From Laetmonice hystrix (taxonomy: Eukaryota): DNA of 64,000 bases. Numbering within the stretch: position 1 is the stretch's first letter; the number at the start of each line of letters is the position of its first letter. This document shows, one piece after another, positions 18,131 to 61,900 of this stretch. The position numbers and the translations under genes were made by a program. The stretch lies in NCBI GenBank assembly GCA_965235115.1, contig OZ249436.1, forward strand, positions 35,280,001 through 35,344,000, given 5' to 3'. Below the pieces are notes generated by a model that had not been told where the DNA came from, searched no databases, and saw nothing but the letters and a program-made list of their open reading frames with translations.

Positions 18131-21100
18131 TCAGCTACTCGTCAATAGGTCAAGGGCCTTGTTCTCGTCGAGGTCGGAGGACAATAGGGCCGGCTGGATG
18201 TTCTCCTCACTGAAGCCGATCTCCTTGAATCTGGCTAGTAGAGTCAGGTACTGGATGGCCTGTTCAACAAAATGATGGTCAAGTCTGAGATGTAGCTAAG
18301 TGACCATAATCTGTAGCACTATAGTTTGTAATACCATATCAGCCCCTAAAAAATTTTAAGTTAACATTACTATTTCAATACATAGACTTACTCTAAGTCA
18401 GGGACTGTTTACCCCCATCTTTGATGTAAATTGCATATGTGTACTGAAATCTACAGCCCGTCTCTGTTTTTTTGGGTGTGATGTTTTTGTTCTTTATAAA
18501 ATCGTTTTTCCGATGAAACTCCCCAGGATAGCCCTTTCAACTTCATGTTCCTGCAGGATGAGATCTTCGGACTTACTTTCTCTTCCTTGTTTTCACAAAG
18601 ATGTATGGCTGTTTCGGCTTCATCTACATCATACCCTTTGTCTGCGACACGACTCACTAAACACAGGTAGTCTACCACCTACAAGGAAACAAGACAGAGA
18701 ACACTTATCCTTGGAAGGCAAGTACAGGTCACAGTACCAGAACGGACTCAATCCAGTTTACCATTACACAAGGTAACCAGGATGCTAATATCAGAATACA
18801 ACTGACTTTGAAAAAAAACCCACAACATTCAGGATAAGCTATCAGAAATGGGACACTTCAAAATCATGATGAAACTCATAAAAATAGTCCATGTTCTTCT
18901 AAAGGATTCATCTGACTTTTGGCCCAGGTAAAAAAGATTCTGAAAGTTAGGCCTGATAGTAATCGCACATTTTGGAGAAAAACAGCAGCCAATGTGTATA
19001 CCTGTTTGTCGTCTTGTCCATGCTTCTCAACGGCCCTTGCCACACGTGCTCGGGAGAAACCCATGTCTGCTATGTTTTCAACAAACCTTTGGTCTTCAGG
19101 TTTAAGACTGGAGTAAGGATCAGGAAGCTTTGAAGAGGTTTTCCGAGTACTATTATTACTCCCTGGCTTGGATGACGTCGACCGGGGCGAGTTCTCATTT
19201 TGACTTGAGCCTGGTGTAGAAGGGAGGATCCTGTAGTGATTCCAGTCCTGAAATGCCATTTTGACACAGAATGTTATCACGTTTTCCTCATCTTCACCGG
19301 ATTGTCTACCTATTTTTACCAACAGGAAGAGAGAGCTTTTCTTTTATCAGAAAAATGTTCACGATCTGTCAGTTCTGACTATTAAATTTTCTTACCTAAC
19401 ACTTAAATGCCTATAAATTTAAAATTGGAAGTTTTACCCTCTTTTGATACCTTTTTTCCTAACATTAGGCTACTCAGAAATGGGTGACGGTCTGGTTCAT
19501 ACTGAGCAATACTCATGCAGGTATGAGATATAAATTTCAAAAATCAGTGAAATAAAGTTTGGGTGCATCCACCACCAGGCTAATGTTTTACATGCCAAAC
19601 CCTTCTTTTTAGAACCTACTAACCACATACCCGGTACATATTTATAAATATTATCTAGTGGTGAAGATATCCAAGCATACCGCAGGTGAAAATATGGAAA
19701 TCAATTATAATTTTAGGCAGGATTCAAAAAAAGGGTGTGCACTCACCCTGTGACACGCTATAATACTACATGGAGTATGGCTTTAGCTATCGGTTTTTAA
19801 TCCAGAGTAAAAATATTGGTGCCGTTTTTCTAGACATGGCCTTGGAAAACCTCACTGCACAGCTTGCTACCTAAAACACTGGCATCAATTCCTTATCATT
19901 TCTTCACAAGAACTGTATTCTTATGATTTTGTTGTAACACAGTTTCCATGGAGGGTTTATCAATTTCTATGCCAAACTAAACCCTAATAACTTTTGAGTA
20001 TCACAGCTACTGCTTCAGGCATATTCCTTTTGGCTTTTCTTCACATAGTGTGCCTACTGCAGTACTGCTTTACATAACTTATTCATGCCATGATAGAATG
20101 ACCTGCAAGTTGCATGGTTACACCCATAATAATTGGGAAATTATTCTCAATTTGTTGTACATAATTCTAAATCATTAAAGTGGTACCTCAAATACTTACC
20201 TTTGAATCCCAGGGACACAAGCAAAAGTATTTTAAAAATGGAGTTATGTGAGGGCTCCATGTTACCGTTCGACCAGTCCGCTATTTTGGGTTGGGAGCTG
20301 GCGGTAATCTATTTATAGATCATTTAGTATGTCCAAATATGGCAGCAGAATCAGAGCGGAAGCCAGGAGGGAAGCAGCGACATATTTTTCCATTTTTAAA
20401 ATACCTTTTCTTACCGCTCGAACCTGAAATTTTAACATGGTGTCCCTGGGGTTACCTTCCACTACTTCTCATCTCAACCAATTCATTTTGACAGCAACTC
20501 ATTCTGTTAACATTTCAATATAATATTATCTTAATTATTATCTTAAAAAACTTCTCATTTTTGTTAAGTTTAAGAAGTTTCCTAAAGAACAAAAGTTAAT
20601 ACTCAAAGATAAAATACATAATCACAGGTATATTAATATTGCAAACATACCAGCACCTTAAACCCATACATCTATTAGGGGAGACCGGAGCCAGTACATA
20701 GGCTACACTCATGACTAAAAATTTAGTCAAGGTAGCAGCAAAAAAAAAGACAAACCTTTCTCCTGTGATCAGCAGTTGCTGTTTGGCTTCAAAACAATAT
20801 GACGGAGAGGGAGTATGGTAGTTATTCCCCAGGTGCATGCATGGCAACAGCTCAGTCACATGACTTCTAATGTTTTGGCAAACTGCAATGTTTCAACTAA
20901 CCCCACATTGCAACTAGCCCCGGTCTCCCCGATGTAATCAGACATCACCAGTCATGCAAGTGTCATGCTTAAAGGGACCACATAAAGCCATTACCCATCA
21001 GTGTTCATCACCTTGTCAATCATGTCAATTCTGGCTAAGAACTGAACCTGTAAGATCAAGCCCCCCCCCCTCCCCCAAAGGAGGAAAAATAATTAACTTT

Positions 21101-39155: not shown

Positions 39156-42039
39156 ACGAAGTATACGGGCTATTATAGTTTTATCCGATTTAGGCTAGTG
39201 TCGATTGGGACTATAACAGAGGGTCTGATGCCAGTGATGGCCCCCCCCCCCCCCCCAATAGTTTTTAATTTGCCGAGGCGCGATCGAGTTACTGACAAAG
39301 GCATCCATCCAAATCAAATAACCCGGTATACAGCAATATAGGCCTAGGGTAAGCCATGGGACATGAACACGCTACGGCGTTCCTTATAATATTTCCATGC
39401 CCCCTGATAGTTATACAAGCCCGAGGCCTACTTACCCGTAGACTCTATACACGATCCAGGAAGCCGGTTCCTCCTACGCCATAATCCGATGTAAGGTTAT
39501 ATTCCAGTCAGGTAGTCGACTCGTGCCTACTATCCAAGATGTGCCAAGTAGAGGAGGCGGAATCACATGCCCGGTGAAGATCATATGACATACCGTCCGT
39601 CATGTGACATGCAGTCAAACACGACCTTGATATGTAGTGAGGAAACTATCGGCAGTCAGTACGGGTGTCCGTACAGTTGTATACAACCGGCCCGTAGAAA
39701 GACTATACTTGTGATATGGCAGTGTCACAGCTAGTGATAACAACCTCGACAAATAATGGCAGTCCCCAAACTATATCAGCTTCGCTTTTTTGGGGGCTGC
39801 AAGGGAATGTTAATTGTCCGAATCTCACGGGTCAAATAGGTGCACAGTCTGGTTTGGAGCCGTAGTTATTGTGAAAGGTTTCGTGCAGCACGGTGCCGAA
39901 CGCTGGGTCAGGGTACGAGTTCTCGGGCTGCCTCTCTGCTGGCCGGATATGCATGAGTAACACTCGCCAGTTGACCCCTCGCTCATATATCGGTCATGGT
40001 GTGTGGGGATCCCTGCAGCCAATAGGCCTACATGGTCTGCCGTCACACCACGATACCCCTGTAGTAGGTTCACAATAGACTGAGGCTGCACCTAGTAATA
40101 CGCCGGTAGCGTGACAGAAAGATTGAGCGATTCGTTCTCAACTGATTTGTTATTAACGATGAACGTATCTATAGAGAATCCTATTCTAAATAAGAAAGAT
40201 TACTTTTATAGGGCCGCCGTGTGCAAATGCCTACGAAAAGTTATGGTGCATTCCGTGCATATAGGCATGCGTGAGCTCTACGTAATAGGCCTACGTAAGG
40301 AGCCGCCTATTCCCAGAAACGTGACTGGATGGTTCTGATCTGCTGGTCCATCACCATTTGACTGCCTTGCCATGCATCGATAGATCCTGCGCAGCCCAGA
40401 TGCAGATGCTTATAAGCCCCCACCCCCAGCTTAACTCCAGGGTTACCATTTTGCAGTGTCTGTATACGGCGCACCTATAAGAGGTTTGATACATACATCA
40501 AGCCCATGCACCCCCCCCCCCACCCCCACCCCCAGTTGCAAAATCCTGGATCCGCCCGACAACTAGCAGGGTGAGGGCGCTCATTTCTAATCGCTGTGCC
40601 CATCCTGAATATATATCAGCATCTGCAACCTTTCTCTGGAACCCTCATGGCACTTATATCGAAATAAGTCGGACTTATCATCTTATCACGATGATAAGTC
40701 GGACTTATCATCTTATTACGATGTGCGGGTTCCTTAATTTCATACTCCATCGTCATATAGCTATACCGACAGGGTAAACATTGCGGCATATATCTGTGGA
40801 TGTTACAGAATATAATCTTTGTAACGTGGGCCTACCAGTACGATATGTTTGCAGTTACCGTATCTACCAGTCCGAGTCTACTATAATTTTTTTATTACCG
40901 GCATTTACTATATATGTTGTATTTTGGGCTAGAGCCAGTGGTATTTTCGGCAAGAGTTATTGACGAGAAAACAAAAGAAGCAATCAATTGTCGCGTTATT
41001 TAACATCGATGATGGTCGGACACACACACGTGTCATAATGTTGCTGGGTGCTGGTACGTTGTTTACCATTGGTGTACAGGGGATGCCATCATGTTGAATC
41101 AGCTGGAGGGACAAACACTGGCACGACCACATTCATACCAGGTCTTGCTCCATTGTCACTTCTCGACGTCCGTCGACTTGTTGTGCGTGGGCCGAGGCCA
41201 GAAAACTGTTCTGCCTGTCGGCAGATTTATCAAAACTGCGCCTTCGTTAAACAAACCTAAAAGTGCCAAATCGGAGAGAGCCAATTGTGGAAATTACAAG
41301 GTAAAGTTCACACAATTTTCTTCAGTAAAGATATTGTGATATAGGCCTACATTAAGACCCTATATGTACATTATTATAGGCCTACTTTCAGGGAGACTTG
41401 AGACGAGACAAGTAAAGCTTTGTTGCTCTGGCAGGCCAATATGTTTCAAACAAAGTCTAGACTATAATCGGTCCAGTCTAAATTCTACCAGTGTCGTTTC
41501 GATTAGATTTCTGCTGTAACTATGGGATGAGATGTGGCATTAATGTGCTACGTCAGTAGCGGATGGGGGGGGGGGGGGCTCCAGGACCCCCCCCCCCCCC
41601 TTGGCGTCAATTTTCCTCTTTTTCCCATAGAGCTTTCTGAATTAACCGTGGTGGACCCCCCCCCCCTTCCAAATTCCTCCTGTACGTGCTTTCCGTACCC
41701 GGATGTTTGAGTCACGTTCGCCATTGTCTCTATGTCAACAAGAGACCGAAGAACGACCGGATATTCTATTACGCGCGTTTTCTTTCCCGTTTGTCTCCAA
41801 TTTCTCTCCTTACAATTAATGTATAGCTACATCTCGTTCATACATGGATACATCCAGATACACATTCTTAGTATAATCAGACATGTAGCTTATGCATGTA
41901 AGCATGGCATCTTTCAACACATGATTTCCTCTTTTCAGAAACACTCCAGGCATGTTGATTTGCTACGTTGGACCTCATAGTATACTGCCCTAAAAGGTTC
42001 CGCGTGAAGCGTATTGAGACGTTGAGGAACATTTTCATT

Positions 42040-42900
42040 ATGAGAATCATAAGTATCCCTGGTATCCCTCATAAAGATGACGAACTTTTGGATGCAATAA
42101 CGCAGGGGCATTTGGGGCGAGTAAAGCAGCTCGTATCGAGTGGTATTTTTATCAATACGGTACTTCACAGCAAAACCAGACATGAAAGTGCTACTCTACT
42201 CGGTACAGCTGCTTATGAAGGTAAGACAAGCATTATGGCATTTCTCATCGAGTCCAAAGCAGCTGTCAACTACAAGGACCCATGTCTCGGCCGCTCTGCT
42301 CTCCAGTGGGCGTGTATAGGGGGACACCTCGCAGCGGTGGAACTGCTCCTCCAATACAAAACTGACGTCAACTGTTCAGATCGCGATAATGTGACACCCC
42401 TCATCCAGGCTGCCATGTTTGGTAGGCTTGAAATAGTAGAAATGCTCATCGAAAACGATGCCCAAGTCGACCAGGTGGACAGACTGCATTCGTCAGCCCT
42501 TCACTATGCGTCGTTTCATGGCCACAGCTCGATCGTGTCGGTTCTGATACGTGCAGGAAACACGTTGAACAATGCTGTGATTTTTGGACAGGGAACGCCA
42601 CTGGCCAACCTGGTGTATCAGGGAGACTTTGTAAACTGCAGTTTGCTACTGGAGGCTGGGTACAGTTTGAAGGAGGATTCCTGGATCCTAAACCATACCT
42701 GCCAAGATGACAAAGACAATAGTGGGCATCTTGTGCTCTATCTATTGCGGGAGTATCGCAACCCACCTTCGTTGTTCAGGCTGAGTCGCATTGCTGTGCG
42801 GAAAACTCTCGGGGCTACAGCAATAAGAAGAAAGATTTTCATGTTGCCACTTCCGAAACGACTGTTGCAGACTGTATTACTACAGCGAGATGTACTTTGA
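42040..42900 (+). CDS. Ankyrin repeat and SOCS box (ASB-like) protein, single coding exon, 286 aa from the first in-frame ATG
   Basis: Ankyrin repeats (TLLGTAAYEG, SALQWACIGGH, TPLIQAAMFGR, SALHYASFHGH) and C-terminal SOCS box PPSLFRLSRIAVRKTL...LPLPKRLLQTV. In-frame stop upstream; likely 5' UTR intron 41301-41938; AATAAA at 43791. Confidence 0.9.
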   Translation: MRIISIPGIPHKDDELLDAITQGHLGRVKQLVSSGIFINTVLHSKTRHESATLLGTAAYEGKTSIMAFLIESKAAVNYKDPCLGRSALQWACIGGHLAAVELLLQYKTDVNCSDRDNVTPLIQAAMFGRLEIVEMLIENDAQVDQVDRLHSSALHYASFHGHSSIVSVLIRAGNTLNNAVIFGQGTPLANLVYQGDFVNCSLLLEAGYSLKEDSWILNHTCQDDKDNSGHLVLYLLREYRNPPSLFRLSRIAVRKTLGATAIRRKIFMLPLPKRLLQTVLLQRDVL

Positions 42901-53850: not shown

Positions 53851-54550
53851 CTCACAAATGTCAAGGGCTCATTGGACTCCCCAGGCCTAATTAGCCCCCC
53901 CCCCCCCTTAACATGGTACTGCTAAAGGAGGAATTGGCTATCGGGACCAGGGACGGATCTAGGGTCTACATTCAGGGGGAGGGGGGCCGAGGGGGGGGGG
54001 TCCAGCATAAAAAGGGCAAATCGAGGGGGGGGGGGGTCAGTTGTAAAAACAATAGGCCTACTTTGGGTTATAAAAAATTAAAGTTTGGCAAATTTGAGGG
54101 GGGGGGGGGTCCGGACGTCGCCGACACCCCCCGTGGATCCGCCTATATGGGGACCATGGGTGCTTTCTAAAAAAGGCCTAGCCAGGGGAGCTAAAATTAG
54201 GTTTACGGAGGGTTTCGTACAAAATACATGGTTGGGACCACTGCACATTGTCCTAGGCCGGATACTGCCCGACGGCTTGGCTGGAGACCTGCCCATGCAT
54301 GCAGGGCTGCTGCTGCCCTCTACCGCCGCACCCCCCAACAAACTGCCACCAGGGCGCAGGTCTCCAGCCAACGTGGATCTGAGCCAAACCCAACGGCCAC
54401 TGCCTCACTTTGCTCCACAATCGGAACGTCCGAGGTCATTTCATTTTCGGTTGAGCGAGAGATGTTGCGATTGTTTGCTCGAGTCGTCCACGCTCTGCAG
54501 GACAGGCAAACAGCACGTGGTCAAACCTTTTGCTCCAAGGCAAGTCACAA

Positions 54551-54565
54551 GGCGCGAAATTTGAA
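54551..54565 (+). promoter_or_regulatory. E2F/CDE-CHR-like tandem element
   Basis: GGCGC + 4-nt spacer + TTTGAA (also reads as the E2F site GGCGCGAAA), about 40 nt upstream of ATG 54604. Confidence 0.55.
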
Positions 54566-54603
54566 ATCTCGCATAGAACGAGAACTTACGAGACGAGCCT
54601 GTC

Positions 54604-54933
54604 ATGGCCGACGAAGGTGGAGAGGGGCACAAAGACCCCGAAGGAAATCATTTGTATAACGGTGTTTCAAACGGTATAGCACCTGGCAACGGTGAGGGTG
54701 TGAATCCAGATGAATCAGATGTCCAGAGAGTTGAAATAACACAGACAGACCATCTGAATAAACGCCTGCTGTCGTCATTCCTGGACCGATTGAACCAGGT
54801 TGGCCCGGAAGGCGGATTTCCCGTGGTGGGCCGAATCGACACGTCTGACCCCGAGGCCGATATCGAGTATGAATACGCCCCGTCTTCAAACAATCAGAAC
54901 GTCGGGGATGAGCTCATTGTACCTGATAAATAG
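54604..54933 (+). CDS. 109-aa uncharacterised acidic protein, single exon; probable first cistron of the NMRK transcript
   Basis: Good Kozak context (gtcATGg), protein-like composition with a helical core ITQTDHLNKRLLSSFLDRLN, splice donor cg|gtaagg 14 nt after the stop. Confidence 0.65.
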   Translation: MADEGGEGHKDPEGNHLYNGVSNGIAPGNGEGVNPDESDVQRVEITQTDHLNKRLLSSFLDRLNQVGPEGGFPVVGRIDTSDPEADIEYEYAPSSNNQNVGDELIVPDK

Positions 54934-55930
54934 GTCAGATCACAGCGGTAAGGGGTTGGACTGGATGGGAAGACGTCCATGATCGCCACCTTCCTGTCGA
55001 AAGGAACAGTTTGAGTTTCACTTGTCCGGGAGAAACGAGTGAACTCGAGTCGAGACCACTGCCTGGCTGTGCTGCCCGTGATTCGGCGTGAAGCGCTGAA
55101 CTGAACTGACTACACAGGGAAACTGACGCAACCGGTCACAGTGTTTAACGCATACATTCTAGAAACCTGGCCTCATAGTCATACTCATAGTCTCATTCTG
55201 AGTATATAACTGACAGTGACAATGCAGTACTCGCAATGGCATTCATGACACAATACACCTGCTTTGCCTTTGCTTTGCTTAGTTTGTATGTACCGTACCT
55301 AACTGTCTTTACAACTAAGTTACAGTTTACAGTACAGTTACAAATACAAGGTACAGTCAGATCTCGTTAAACCGTGCTTCTTTAATCCGAATACACTTTC
55401 TGGTAATCTCTTCTACCATTGTCTATTTAAAATGATTCACAATCTGAACACATTTTAACGGGCAGCAAGCTGTTCAGATAAACAAGGTCTGACTCTACAC
55501 ACGATATGGCAGATCGATATATATTATTAGTGTTTGAACCTCATGATAAAAACTAACAAAACTTCAAAATCAAACACCTGGCTGTATATCATTGCAGTCA
55601 TTTATAGTCTATAAACAAATGTAAAAGGTGCAGTCTGTTTTTTATTGACCATCATTGTTCAGGACTTGATTGGCTCAGAATCAGAGGCGGCTCTTCTGCC
55701 TCAGCCTACAGCCCTAGTTATAATATCACTTTGTATCGGATGTTATGACCTAAACAATTGAATGGCATCTTGAGAGAGTACACCATGAAACTCATTCAAG
55801 TATATTTACACCAGATCCATGATGTTGAACTTTGATCTTTTTAGGTTGAATCTACACAGTAGTCGAGACAACCAACAACATCATTACATACAAGATTAGA
55901 CAATTGGATTTGTTGTATTCCAAAGGCATC

Positions 55931-58159
55931 ATGTCAAAATATTTTATCATTGGAGTTTCAGGGTATGGAACAGGTTTATCACAATATCATTATCCCAGTT
56001 AAAACCTGGTGGATGTGCACTAATTTGTAAGTGGTATGCAGTTCACAATTTTTGCATATACTTAAATAAGCTCCTGCCAGGATTGTAATATTCTGCCTGC
56101 CTGGACGACTTTCTGTATCAATTGTCTAATTGAAAAATGTTTTTAGGACTTTCTGAGATATTGACATTCAATAATAACATTTAGACCAGTTGTTTGTATG
56201 GCTGGACCTTGCTACATGTCGACATTCTATGTCAACTCTCGCTAATTCATGCTGTTCAAAAACCATATAAAGATGAAAAATTTCTGGATACGGTTTTCAA
56301 AATGTTAATTGTATCAACTGAAGGATGGTATCTTTTGACAGTGCTACCAATGGGGGTAAGAGTACACTTTGTCATCGTTTGTGTCAACATTTCAAAAAGA
56401 CAAGCTGTATTTGTATGGACGACTATTTCTGGGTAAGCGATTCCTTAAAAATGAATAAAGATTGACTCGTATTTCAGTCATTCAAAAGCTGTCTCTAAGT
56501 TGATTATTTTCGAATTAAACTAGAGGATTCAATTCCTTAAACAAGGACAAAATATTCACCTAGAAACATTACGACATACATGAGGAGTTCACCCAAAAAA
56601 ATCCAGTCTGATTCACCATAATAGGAATCAGTAAAAAATCATTCCTTCAGTACATGTCGGGCTGTCCTGTATATTATATTAATCCTTATTTTAGGATCCT
56701 GACAGTGAGAACCATACAGTGACAGGAAATCTGAACTACATAAATTGGGAAGGTGAGAATGAACATCCAATGAAATTCCTTTTCTTTTTTTTTACATGGA
56801 AAAGAATGGGATGAAGTCAGTGGCATCAGATGTAATCTGTCATTGCTTTAGATAAAATAGTTTCTAAGAGCTGTTGAACGACGATTAGAAACTTTTAGGC
56901 TTTGCCTGATTAAATTTTGATTGTGAGAGCTCTACTCGGGGTACGAAAAATCTAACTTTTGGCCACTATCCCAGATGTCAAAAATACAGCTCTGTATGAG
57001 GAACATCATCAAAAGCACACAATGCTGTCTATTCCTGGCATTATTCTCTCCGGTCCTGCATGACCACGAAACCTACAAATTCAATTTCTCATTTTATCGG
57101 GACGTCCGTGAGATAAAAGGGCACATCCGTCAGACTAGTATAATGCATTTGCTTGGCTCTTGGGGGTGGTCTGACCCGAAAAAACGCTAGTCCCTGGCGT
57201 CCCAGATTTTTTTATCCCTGGCTACTGTAGTTTTTTAAATTCAGTTTCTGGTGATGTGATTTATTTCAGTTGTTACAGCAGTTGACTTTCAAAAGATGCT
57301 TGCCGATGTCAAAATATGGATTGAAGAGGCAAAGTCCAATACGACACAAGAAACGCCACTTCTCTTCATTGAAGGAATTGTCATTTTGAACTTCAAGTAG
57401 GTACCTGAAATACGGTTTTACAATTCTTAATTAAATATAATATTGACATGTATCAGTAGTTGATAGAGGGGGTGGGTATCACCTTGGGCAACAAAATTCT
57501 AAGTCCATTAAAATATTGCAGGATACACCTTCATTTCACCACCTGCAAGTTGATAAATATGTGTGTTTCAGACCTTTAGAGCCTTATTTCTCAAAAAAAT
57601 TCTTCCTAACAATGCCCAAGGACGTATGCTGGAACCGCAGAAAGTGAGTTACTGATGGCCTACTAATATAATACATTGATTCAGAAAATGGCTAAATGGC
57701 TGACCAGCAATATTTATCTTGACATTTTATTGTTCTTATATTTATTAAGAAACAAAAATAACAAAAGCAAGTTTCTCTATTCTTATTCCAGGCTAAGAGT
57801 ATACGTTCCTCCTGATCCACCTTGCTACTTTGATGCGATTGCATGGCCAATGTACTTGAAGAACAAGGAAGAACTCTCAGAACAGACAGACCTCGGTAGG
57901 TGTCTGCTCTCCTAGTCATACTATATTAAAGACCCCCTGAGGTCATCCTCATTGAAAATTTAGTGAAGCGAATATCATTTTTCAAGTTAGGGTAAAACTT
58001 GTAGGAACAATTCTTTAACTTATATTCTGCCTTTCTAAGTGTCCACTCAGACGTAAATCTTTATATATTTCAGTGTATATCGATGGATCTGGAGATCAAG
58101 AGAAAATCTTTGAAGAGGCAGTCGAAGAGATCCAACAATTGTTGGCACAGCGTAGCTAA
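55931..58159 (+). CDS. NMRK1: Nicotinamide riboside kinase, 7 coding exons: 55931-55962, 56342-56432, 56695-56752, 57270-57396, 57572-57643, 57792-57895, 58074-58159; 189 aa
   Basis: MSKYFIIGVSGATNGGKSTL (P-loop), CMDDYF, LLFIEGI, RRKLRVYVPPDPPCYFDAIAWPMYLK, VYIDG. Total 570 nt in frame. Likely co-orthologous to vertebrate NMRK1 and NMRK2. Confidence 0.93.
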
Positions 58160-58213: not shown

Positions 58214-58950
58214 AGACTCTTTCAGGTAACCTGTAGACAACAGGTATTGCTAATAAAGATGCAAGTCCATAAAAGTCGTTTTCCATATTTTAATGGATTC
58301 AAACCTAGGAAACCTTATAAATAAAAGATAATGTTTCTCATTCTCACAAGGTGTCCCCTTGTAGTTTTCATAAGATGAAATGCAGAAATACCACACTATA
58401 ATTTGTATGATCACTAATCCAAATCCAATCCTTGTAAACAAACAAGTCCTCTCCTCTGCTGATTTGGGGTCTGGTGCCCTGCCCCCAGTCGCCCACCTTT
58501 TAACAGCATCGCAAAAAGTCAATATTGTTCATGCAGAAAGAAATAAAATAAAAAAATTACTGCTTTGCCATGATTTCTTTTTCGTCTTATTAGAACAATA
58601 TTTTGTTTTTTGACACTGAACTTGTCCTCTGACATTTTGGTATCTGTACACATTTGTTTTCAAAAAAAGGATTACAAACGGTGAAACTACTTTCCTTCTG
58701 GGGTGCAAATTGTTGGTGAAAAGTCCTTTTCAACGTTGGTAACTTATTTGGTGCCCATGATTCAGTAACTAAAATCCAGTTCTTTCAAATTTGCACGACA
58801 AATAATTAGCTATTAAAACTTTGGGCAGATCAGAAATCACATGTTCTGACGGTAGTTCCTTCTCACGTCTCTCTGTCCCAGCATGAGACTCTTTCAGGTA
58901 ACCTGTAGACAACAGGTATTGCTAATGCAAGTCCATAAAAGTTGTTTTCC
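58214..58950. repeat. Direct repeat of about 65-70 bp (58214-58284 and 58886-58950) between convergent NMRK and DCP2 3' ends
   Basis: agactctttcaggtaacctgtagacaacaggtattgctaat[aaagat]gcaagtccataaaagt.gttttcc present twice. Confidence 0.9.
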
Positions 58951-58992: not shown

Positions 58993-61900
58993 TTATAACA
59001 TGGAGTAGGCTGACATGACAGCATCAATGTCCAACCTGAAGTTCATCCATGTCTCAGAACCAAACGGTCCCTCCCGAGTCTTCATCACAGACCTTTTTAA
59101 GCCTTGTCCACCTCCATCACTAGTACCTGCAAGCAAAACAATAAATTCAAAATATCTGGTGGATCGAGCGAAACTCAAGATCGTAAATCTACAACATGAA
59201 CCTCTGCTTTGTGATTACATGTGCTGTGGACAGCCATGAAATTGGTCCATAAGATTTTACCGATTTCTGTTCTGGGTAGTGAAACTTGTTTATCTTTTAT
59301 CTCTGCAATGCAAAAACGTATTCGGATAGTACAATACATCTATAATATATTTGGACAAAGCGATACTTTCTATTAAACTGTGCCGACAGTGACTTCCTCG
59401 GCGTTGAACCAGATGTTGTGCCATCTCGTTTAAGGATCTGCAACTGTTTTTTATGCTGTTTTGGTGAAGAAACTTGTGACCGACCATGACCCTTTTGATT
59501 GTGAGCAGACGGAGATGCTGATCTTGTCCTTTGATCTTTGCTTCCTTTCGGTGTTTTGAGGTTCTTGCAGCTCATGTACTCTAAGAAATCATTCTGGATC
59601 TGGAAACAGATCAATTGTAGACAATGATGCACAACTTCTTGTCGAGACCCTAGCAAACTGAACTTTCACAGAAACGGCTCCATAAGTACATTACCATTTG
59701 TTTTTTAAATGTCCGACATCACAACAGTCCGAATTGAACCTCCACAATTACCATGTATGCTGCAGCCGTCAATAAAACAAAGGAATTAGTTGCTCCTGAA
59801 GTATGTTAAACTAGTAAAATAACCTATCCTATAAATTGAGATCACCTGTTGTTGGAAGTGCTGTTGCTGCTTCTGCCGCTGCTTCTCTGTGTTTGCTGAA
59901 GGATCCGATGATTCCGCACACTGGGACTTGGAACGTTGCCGTCGAGAAGACGCTCCTTGACTACCATCTGCCTCCCCACTTTTGCTTCGCCCTCGAAAAC
60001 TACCACTCAAGCTTGAATCTGACTCGCCAAGCTCGGGAGTCCGTCCCAGTCTCCTGGCTACCCATTTTCTTAGAGGCCTGCACAGGTTGAAGTTAGCATA
60101 TACATGTATGTGATTCTAACTGTTGGAAACTTTACATCGGTACTCAAATTCATGGAACAAATAACTGAATCCTGGCTCATGCCAATGAAATCTATTCCTG
60201 AAGACCTTGTAGTGATCAAAACTCTCAGGTAACTAGGGGAAAAAATTCTTCAATCAACACTGTTGGACTATTACAATATTACTCACAATAAAAAACCCCT
60301 ACTTTAAATTCACACTGAACATTTCAAATGTATGTGAAGTTCTAATCACTGACAGAACAATGTTATTCAGCTAATGTGTTTCATACCTATTTACAAAATT
60401 ATAGACCCATTTCAGCTTAGATATGAAATCGATATACAATGTATTTTAGATTAATTCATACTTACTTTACAAAAGGTATCACCATGAAGAATGCATTTGG
60501 AGGCAGGTTATAATGTGTTTTGCAGGCAATATCCTTCTTGTGTGCTGGAATTTGATCTATACGGAACCAGTCGAGTTTCTTGAATACAGAATATGCACAA
60601 CATTATAAACCTTCCATCCATACTTGAGAATGTTTTCCTTAATTAAGATTGTTGGTACACAACATTATAAACCATCAATACTTGAGAATGTTTTCCTTAA
60701 TTAAGATTGTTGATATTGGTATTTCTAAGGACAGATTCCTTTAATTTAGGAAGAAAATAACGTGCTTGTAATTCACAATTCATATGGCATATTTCAGTCA
60801 TGTACATGTAGTATAATTAAATGCATGTAAAACTTTATCTTTACCCTTATTTCTTTTCTTGTTCTTGGAGCAAACTTTGTTTCCATAGAGACACCAGGTA
60901 TGATATACAGCCGACTAATTTGTTCATTCATCTTGAATTCTATATACTCGTCTTTGTCAATCATGTTGCTGATATCAAATCCAGTTTCTTCAAATACCTG
61001 TAAACGGAAGGCACAGACTATGATATATCCTAGTGCATGTATCTGCATTCCCCTTCCATTAGTTTACTTTCAACCTATTATTATTTGTTTGGTGAAGCTT
61101 TTTTTATGAAATTACAAAATGTATAATAGTCGTTTGTATTTTAAAGGATTCTATTTTATCATGTTCAAATATTGGGAGACTTAACTTTCTTTACTGACAT
61201 GTTCCTCAATTTCAGCAACAAATTGGTTGTTCAGGAGATTACATTTGTATCATTCATCAGTACCATGACATTCCTTCACTCCTTTTCAGTAGGATTTTGA
61301 TGTAAGCAGAATGAGTTAACTGTATTGTAGTTACCTCCCGTATGGCACAGTCATACGACACCTCATCCTCGTTGACCTTCCCCTTTGGGAAACCCCAGTT
61401 AGCCTTTGACCAGTAGCCCTGAACTAGGAGACACTGCAAACACACCACATATTATCATTACTCTAACATTATCTGACTAAACCACAGCATTTTAAATACT
61501 ATTTGTGCACAGGCAGACAATGCAGCCAGTAGAACACCACCTTAACAGTGGATTTTGACACTGGGTAAGTTTTACATAAACGGGGGAAGTTGGCCGAAAG
61601 TTGAGAAAGAAAACACTCACAAATTGAAGTGAAGGGTCCAGCATGATGGCTCCGTATGTGGGAACAGCCATTTTGTATCCCCTCCATGATTCCAGTATCT
61701 TATCAACATTATCAGCATGGACAATAAGTGTTGGGCAGTGTCGGAAAACTTGGAACAATTAAGGAAGATAGCTGCACTTTTTAACACATTATGTAGAACA
61801 ACAAAGTACAAAGTAAAACAAAGATACAACTTGACAACGTGAACTCCAGCAATCCTTTTTTTAACCGGTATCCCATTCACACTCAATTTGAATGCTATTG

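Follow-up and report, generated by a model that had tools for sequence, protein, structure and literature searches.

A conserved small protein encoded upstream of nicotinamide riboside kinase in Laetmonice hystrix: a candidate bicistronic locus of animals

Our analysis points to an ancient transcription unit of animals that encodes two proteins, a small one as the first cistron and nicotinamide riboside kinase (NMRK) as the second, the two being kept together by a shared promoter and not by a pathway. We regard this as the probable reading of a locus in the window, by which we mean the whole 64,000-nucleotide stretch of Laetmonice hystrix contig OZ249436.1 that was analysed. The first cistron would be a small, acidic, disordered protein whose conserved amphipathic helix docks, we infer, on a partner; coding constraint and the helix are the shown part of this proposal. 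In relatives, NMRK would either share the exon of the first ORF, starting 4-91 nt after its stop, or follow an intron that has its donor behind that stop, and is most likely reached by ribosomes scanning past the first start. In L. hystrix, the ORF transcript would continue into NMRK exon 1, with the sampled RNA unspliced over the spacer. Because nothing but the small protein can be made from the unspliced form, the source of the kinase would then be a spliced form that is minor or condition-specific, an internal promoter, or both.

Four runs of one sample (X1-X4) cover the stretch. Splicing is visible in X4 only, and X4 was taken as RNA solely from its six GT..AG joints. The two genes and their features are as follows.

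54604..54933, plus strand: upstream cistron, a single-exon ORF of 109 amino acids, member of an uncatalogued eukaryotic family
54742..54798, plus strand: conserved amphipathic helix, residues 47-65 (AlphaFold2, column conservation, hydrophobic moment)
54869..54910, plus strand: internal ATGs at 54869 and 54908, both outside the ORF frame and in the NMRK frame if the acceptor at 55925 is used
55931..58159, plus strand: nicotinamide riboside kinase, 189 amino acids (six GT..AG joints in X4, translation)
55931-55962, 56342-56432, 56695-56752, 57270-57396, 57572-57643, 57792-57895 and 58074-58159, plus strand: the seven NMRK coding exons, separated by six introns
58252..58325, plus strand: two AATAAA signals past the NMRK stop; downstream of the ORF, only that at 56454 is a canonical signal lying before them

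The upstream protein and its family

The first-pass annotation had described a complete 109-codon ORF with a strong start and a short helical core in acidic disordered flanks, and both descriptions hold. The ORF opens in the context gtcATGg. Its product is acidic (22 D/E versus 7 K/R) and disordered outside a single helix. In the AlphaFold2 model of the 109-aa protein, residues 47-65 form one helix with a pLDDT of about 90, while the flanks are of low confidence. The helix has the consensus T-Q/L-T-D-H-L-N-K-R-L-L-x-S-F-L-x-R-L-N and a hydrophobic moment of 0.40.

Searching with the single sequence returned 14 matches among 15 candidates, and searching cluster representatives returned 55, a few of them low-complexity; a profile built from 48 sequences then recovered 448 homologs. 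Organism names accompany nine of the 120 best of these 448 profile matches, none with a function. Across the searches, named members belong to a hemichordate, two annelids, a gastropod, a sturgeon and teleosts. There is no tetrapod among these nine organism-named matches, which neither show nor exclude a human member. None of nine pattern matches in a viral collection and none of eight in a prokaryote collection was confirmed as a relative. Pfam (0 families), a PDB profile search and the Atlas (searched twice) gave no usable match for the ORF, nor did Rfam for the ORF or the window. The family is thus uncatalogued, seldom named, and hundreds of members strong while being absent from Pfam, PDB and the Atlas representatives. 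In three members (P0015, P0021 and P0077) the helix occurs in two or three tandem copies.

Conservation is restricted to a 19-residue block, near-invariant by column conservation over 117 distinct 24-mers. About 45 residues separate this block from the stop, and the C-terminus varies freely. Core dN/dS was 0.00-0.10 in 10 of 17 pairs, the other pairs being saturated. An ORF without conservation, which the first-pass annotation had named as evidence against its proposal, is therefore not what was found: there are 448 homologs, and core dN/dS is at most 0.10 where measurable. From these homologs, the near-invariant helix and the low core dN/dS, we read the ORF as a real gene whose protein, as with the upstream ORFs of known bicistronic mRNAs, is conserved and subject to purifying selection. 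A chance ORF or assembly artefact would fit the lack of Pfam, PDB and Atlas matches, but it is opposed by the homologs, the selection, the conserved position of the ORF and the agreement of three other runs, which cover the ORF with no listed difference. We consider it ruled out by the homologs and the core dN/dS. A second haplotype, in X2 contig 11, carries seven differences, all in the spacer and none in the ORF.

Position relative to NMRK in other genomes

The first-pass annotation had proposed that homologs of the ORF be sought 5′ of NMRK in other taxa, and there they were found. Of 30 family loci, 8 (L001-L005, L007, L008 and L020) have NMRK as the next gene in the same orientation; together with the window they form six groups with ORF identities of 25-44%. 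From ORF stop to kinase start, the spacer measures 4 nt in L005, 13 in L002, 32 in L001, 91 in L004 and 179 in L003, where the link is through exon 1 alone. The ORF and kinase exon 1 lie in one exon in L001 and L002. L004 and L005 are intronless contigs with the ORF plus the whole kinase, and L005 terminates just past an AATAAA. Both ORFs thus lie on one mature mRNA in these four relatives, as represented by assembled contigs and not single molecules. A longer spacer, of 0.8-3.3 kb, separates the two genes in L007 (linked through exon 1 and a weak exon-2 match, iE 0.006), L008 and L020; a donor lies 13-37 nt past the stop and the kinase ATG comes soon after an acceptor, which is the design that the first-pass annotation had proposed. 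A donor soon after the stop is seen in L007, L008, L009, L020 and L030, and GTRAG occurs within 45 nt of the stop in none of the 19 other loci tested. In the window and in all eight linked loci a stop precedes NMRK, giving two separate ORFs and no fusion.

The downstream gene is an NRK by its full-length similarity to NRK1, which is well above that to uridine kinases. The window kinase is 45% identical to that of L004 over 184 aa, and the L004 kinase matches human NRK1 with an E of 1.4e-37, versus 2e-7 or weaker for uridine kinases. The NRK-like genes at L007:4675-5590 and L008:1192-1775 have an N-terminal P-loop region that is altered relative to the other kinases. A convergent SCAMP gene follows NMRK in both L001 and L002. 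In the window, a gene with a DCP2 Nudix exon (60797-61000, minus strand) converges on NMRK; farther away are an ASB-like single open frame that combines ankyrin repeats with a SOCS box (41959-42900, plus strand) and a UBA-like domain match that is weak and falls short of the curated cut-off (18876-19343, minus strand).

NMRK is absent downstream in 5 of the 30 loci with 4.3-9.9 kb visible (L006, L014, L019, L026 and L029, a fish-like copy among them), and in 16 loci with less than 2.8 kb downstream there is no NMRK within that stretch. L030 has TIPIN where others have NMRK: at L030:2545-4063, the member's donor lies 26 nt past its stop, and an intronless TIPIN/Swi3 ORF follows 313 nt downstream. 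This is probably a second, independent bicistronic pairing. Neighbours were assigned by a Pfam scan of 128 locus ORFs, most of them selected from 357 listed. Upstream, a START-domain gene lies just before the ORF on the same strand in L021, L022 and L023, at 0.6-1.5 kb, and a divergent TSSC4 was seen in L026. Because of the five long loci without NMRK, the TIPIN of L030 and the unrelated upstream ORF of the fly NRK described below, the ORF-NMRK link is not obligatory.

These neighbours bear on two other readings. The small protein might be a subunit or regulator of NMRK, with co-transcription setting the ratio of the two, and the retention of the linkage in six groups, the window included, is in line with this. 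We nevertheless judge it improbable: the five long loci keep the family without an adjacent NMRK, the partner is TIPIN in L030, the helix is built into a CDC123 and joined to a PAH-domain protein, and the fly NRK follows an unrelated hydrophobic uORF. Alternatively, the ORF could act in cis, as a conserved-peptide uORF whose stalling of ribosomes adjusts NMRK to a metabolite. Its 5′ position, the short spacers and conservation at the peptide level would suit such an element, but the conserved block is central, ending well short of a C-terminus that is free to vary; it is also conserved with no NMRK downstream and within other proteins, and the downstream gene varies. Neither the C-terminal conserved block nor the fixed downstream gene that would mark a cis-acting uORF was found, and we hold this reading to be very improbable. 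For the preferred reading, a two-protein transcription unit, the bicistronic ORF-NMRK design is well supported across animals and is unproven in L. hystrix.

The spacer in Laetmonice hystrix and access to the kinase

The region between the two genes carries the following features.

54934..55930, plus strand: spacer or predicted intron, 997 nt, with 16 ATGs, no AATAAA or ATTAAA, TATAAA at 55610 and a high-copy repeat near 55350-55465
54945..54953, plus strand: predicted 5′ splice site (54947/54948), from sequence and from like-placed donors in L007, L008, L009, L020 and L030
55822..55844, plus strand: predicted acceptor 1, giving an intron of 897 nt and a 100-nt ATG-free leader
55903..55925, plus strand: predicted acceptor 2, giving an intron of 978 nt and a 19-nt ATG-free leader

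The splice sites that the first-pass annotation had named do exist as sequence. The donor-like GCG|GTAAGG, 14 nt past the ORF stop, fits the consensus as well as the six RNA-confirmed NMRK donors do, and the chance rate of a GTRAG at most 20 nt from a stop triplet is 2.6% in the window (88 of 3395). Acceptor-like sites end at 55844 and 55925, both predicted intron lengths are frame-preserving, and no ATG lies between either acceptor and the NMRK ATG. A donor-like site inside the ORF, at 54798, gives no in-frame fusion with NMRK, as had been claimed.

Use of the donor is another matter, since the junction from 54947 that the first-pass annotation had asked for was not seen in X4, the RNA-like run, where contigs run unbroken over the donor and the acceptors. 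X4 contig 25 (54608-55151) reads straight through the donor. Contig 26 (55677-55962) does the same through both acceptors and ends at the first NMRK donor. In bins 54638-54871 and 54872-55105 the X4 depth equals exactly that of contig 25, which leaves none for a junction contig. A joint from 54947 is also absent among the 15 X4 joints shown, 12 further joints falling outside that listing. Assembled contigs drop rare variants and show no transcript starts or ends, and short-read contigs can merge overlapping transcripts; because rare variants are lost, a minor spliced form may exist alongside what X4 shows. No listed X4 contig bridges 55151-55677, and a single transcript is for this reason not established for L. 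hystrix. An X4 hole at 55628-55676 starts at a heterozygous site and was excluded as evidence of a transcript end, and depth differences among X4 contigs were not taken to rank isoforms. Co-transcription, as first proposed, is therefore supported in the relatives, through 8 of 30 loci, short spacers and intronless contigs, but not as a spliced mRNA in X4, where the spacer is unspliced. Judging from the 16 ATGs in the spacer, unspliced spacer RNA could give the small protein alone.

Unspliced RNA was also seen at NMRK intron 1 (55963-56341), which is skipped by a joint and partly covered by the X4 contig 56140-56370. NMRK intron 2 contains an AATAAA (56454) that could terminate an ORF-only isoform. 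Short high-copy repeats at about 53940-54170, 54400-54460 and 55350-55465 flank the ORF and lie within the spacer, at depths 100- to 1000-fold above their neighbours in X1-X3.

Leaky scanning predicts that out-of-frame ATGs are lost from the first ORF. By within-gene codon permutation, the nine linked ORFs hold 10 such ATGs versus 20.1 +/- 2.7 expected (P about 0.001, for related members and a linked/unlinked split decided after the loci were seen). The corresponding counts are 43 versus 39.3 expected in 14 unlinked ORFs and 26 versus 21.7 in three NMRK coding sequences that served as a control. None of six control triplets is depleted in the linked ORFs, and six one-per-lineage subsets gave P values of 0.006-0.014 for the ATG depletion. 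The unlinked set is 14 of the 22 non-linked loci, omitting near-duplicates (L013, L016, L024, L027), the fused L006, the truncated L017 and the ambiguous L009 and L030. Wherever the start of a linked ORF is visible (eight cases), its first ATG has a strong context, with a purine at -3, and only modest leak-through is to be expected. Given the depletion, NMRK is most likely reached by ribosomes scanning past the first start. Spacers of 4-32 nt would also permit reinitiation, to which we prefer scanning with some confidence. The first-pass annotation had named both routes; the linked set as a whole shows the depletion, but the window ORF, the least depleted of the set, does not (4 versus 4.75 expected). 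The four out-of-frame ATGs of this ORF had been overlooked. Frames from those at 54869 and 54908 end at a TGA just past the acceptor at 55844, and two of the four open frames of 9 and 6 codons in weak context. ATG depletion of this kind offers a measurable mark for the gain or decay of bicistronic mRNAs.

The state of the window locus could also mean that an ancestral bicistron has been uncoupled in L. hystrix, leaving a long unspliced ORF mRNA and an NMRK promoter within about 55600-55930. The unspliced spacer with no junction in X4, its 16 ATGs, the TATAAA, the window ORF without ATG depletion and the monocistronic form that fly CG12016 has from an alternative promoter (PMC4528330) would all agree with this. 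Against uncoupling, both acceptors are retained together with a strong donor 14 nt past the stop, with ATG-free leaders and frame-preserving introns; the spacer has no canonical poly(A) signal, and the evidence comes from one sample. We see uncoupling as a possible but rather unlikely outcome, and retain the two-protein unit as the preferred reading.

Functional leads and comparison with known systems

An invariant amphipathic helix in variable acidic flanks, repeated in some members, would have the anatomy of a docking motif. P0052, from the choanoflagellate Stephanoeca diplocostata, is the C-terminal half of a CDC123 with two in-frame copies of the helix, which sit between segments matching 8PHD_A 175-297 and 313-345. 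In P0126 the helix is followed by the same CDC123-like tail, recognized by a pairwise match to P0052, PDB having given low-complexity matches only. CDC123 joins the subunits of eIF2 during its assembly. A role for the small protein in CDC123-dependent eIF2 assembly is our best functional lead, which we put forward tentatively, and the CDC123 insertion makes it a concrete and cheaply testable one. A broader version, about which we are more doubtful, would have the family be a eukaryote-wide one-helix adaptor for CDC123/eIF2, mostly free-standing, built into at least one choanoflagellate CDC123 and hidden in the leaders of NMRK and TIPIN, where its own initiation would gate the downstream enzyme.

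The argument from the CDC123 fusion is not exclusive, because the helix also forms the C-terminal part of a 790-aa PAH-domain protein encoded by one long open frame (L006:99-2480). Among 8000 scored candidates for longer fused forms there was one match, a fish model without a Pfam domain, in a search insensitive enough to miss P0052. Complex prediction with the P0052 CDC123 C-lobe and the ORF core scored 0.00, for a cross-species pair with the alignment not used, and speaks neither for nor against an interaction. The ORF as a CDC123/D123 member was rejected: it has no ATP-grasp PF07065 and 0 Pfam families, and only the helix is common to it and P0052. The swapping of downstream partners weakens the case for a functional tie to NAD salvage.

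We found no paper on a bicistronic pairing of NMRK or TIPIN with this family, on its CDC123 link or on its motif, most subscription papers and bioRxiv supplements being outside the scope of the search. NMRK is absent from the main text of PMC13303939, and NMRK1/2 and TIPIN occur in expression tables only across its 11 supplementary files, one of them incomplete. Candidate fly TIPIN genes do not appear in the FlyBase polycistron file.

The closest parallel is in Drosophila, where the NRK gene CG12016, listed as NMRK1 in a table of PMC8664455, is an annotated dicistron with CG42456 and starts 93 nt past the stop of that small conserved ORF (PMC2276209); a monocistronic form from an alternative promoter is also recorded (PMC4528330 File S1). 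NRK is thus the downstream cistron after a small conserved ORF in the fly as in the loci studied here. However, the 81-aa fly protein is hydrophobic and, compared by eye, has neither the helix motif nor the acidic make-up, for which reason it was rejected as the same protein. Presumably it is DPM2-like. Because the fly uORF is hydrophobic and without the motif, NRK has, judging by sequence, two unrelated 5′ partners in animals. Partner swapping in our family (NMRK, TIPIN or none), together with this alternate fly partner, offers a natural experiment on the origin and decay of bicistronic mRNAs.

With CDC123/D123 (PF07065; PDB 8PHD), the likeness is the helix itself, present twice in the S. diplocostata CDC123 and once in P0126, but the family profile matches no solved CDC123 chain. 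In green algae, polycistronic mRNAs have short inter-ORF distances, as here, and leaky scanning is favoured, the mechanism having been tested by altering the first Kozak context (PMC7896298). In contrast, scanning at ORF-NMRK loci is argued from ATG depletion, and the first-ATG contexts are strong.

Human mRNAs of the same general design are ASDURF-ASNSD1, PYURF-PIGY, MIURF-MIEF1 and STREMI-SLC35A4, each bicistronic with a conserved uORF protein (PMC13303939). They resemble the ORF-NMRK pair in having a conserved protein of about 100 codons 5′ of an unrelated main ORF, with partners from once independent genes (PMC13303939). The proteins differ, and the ORF-NMRK pair is known here from sequence and assembled contigs. 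To this known kind, our study would add a deeply conserved bicistronic locus of animals.
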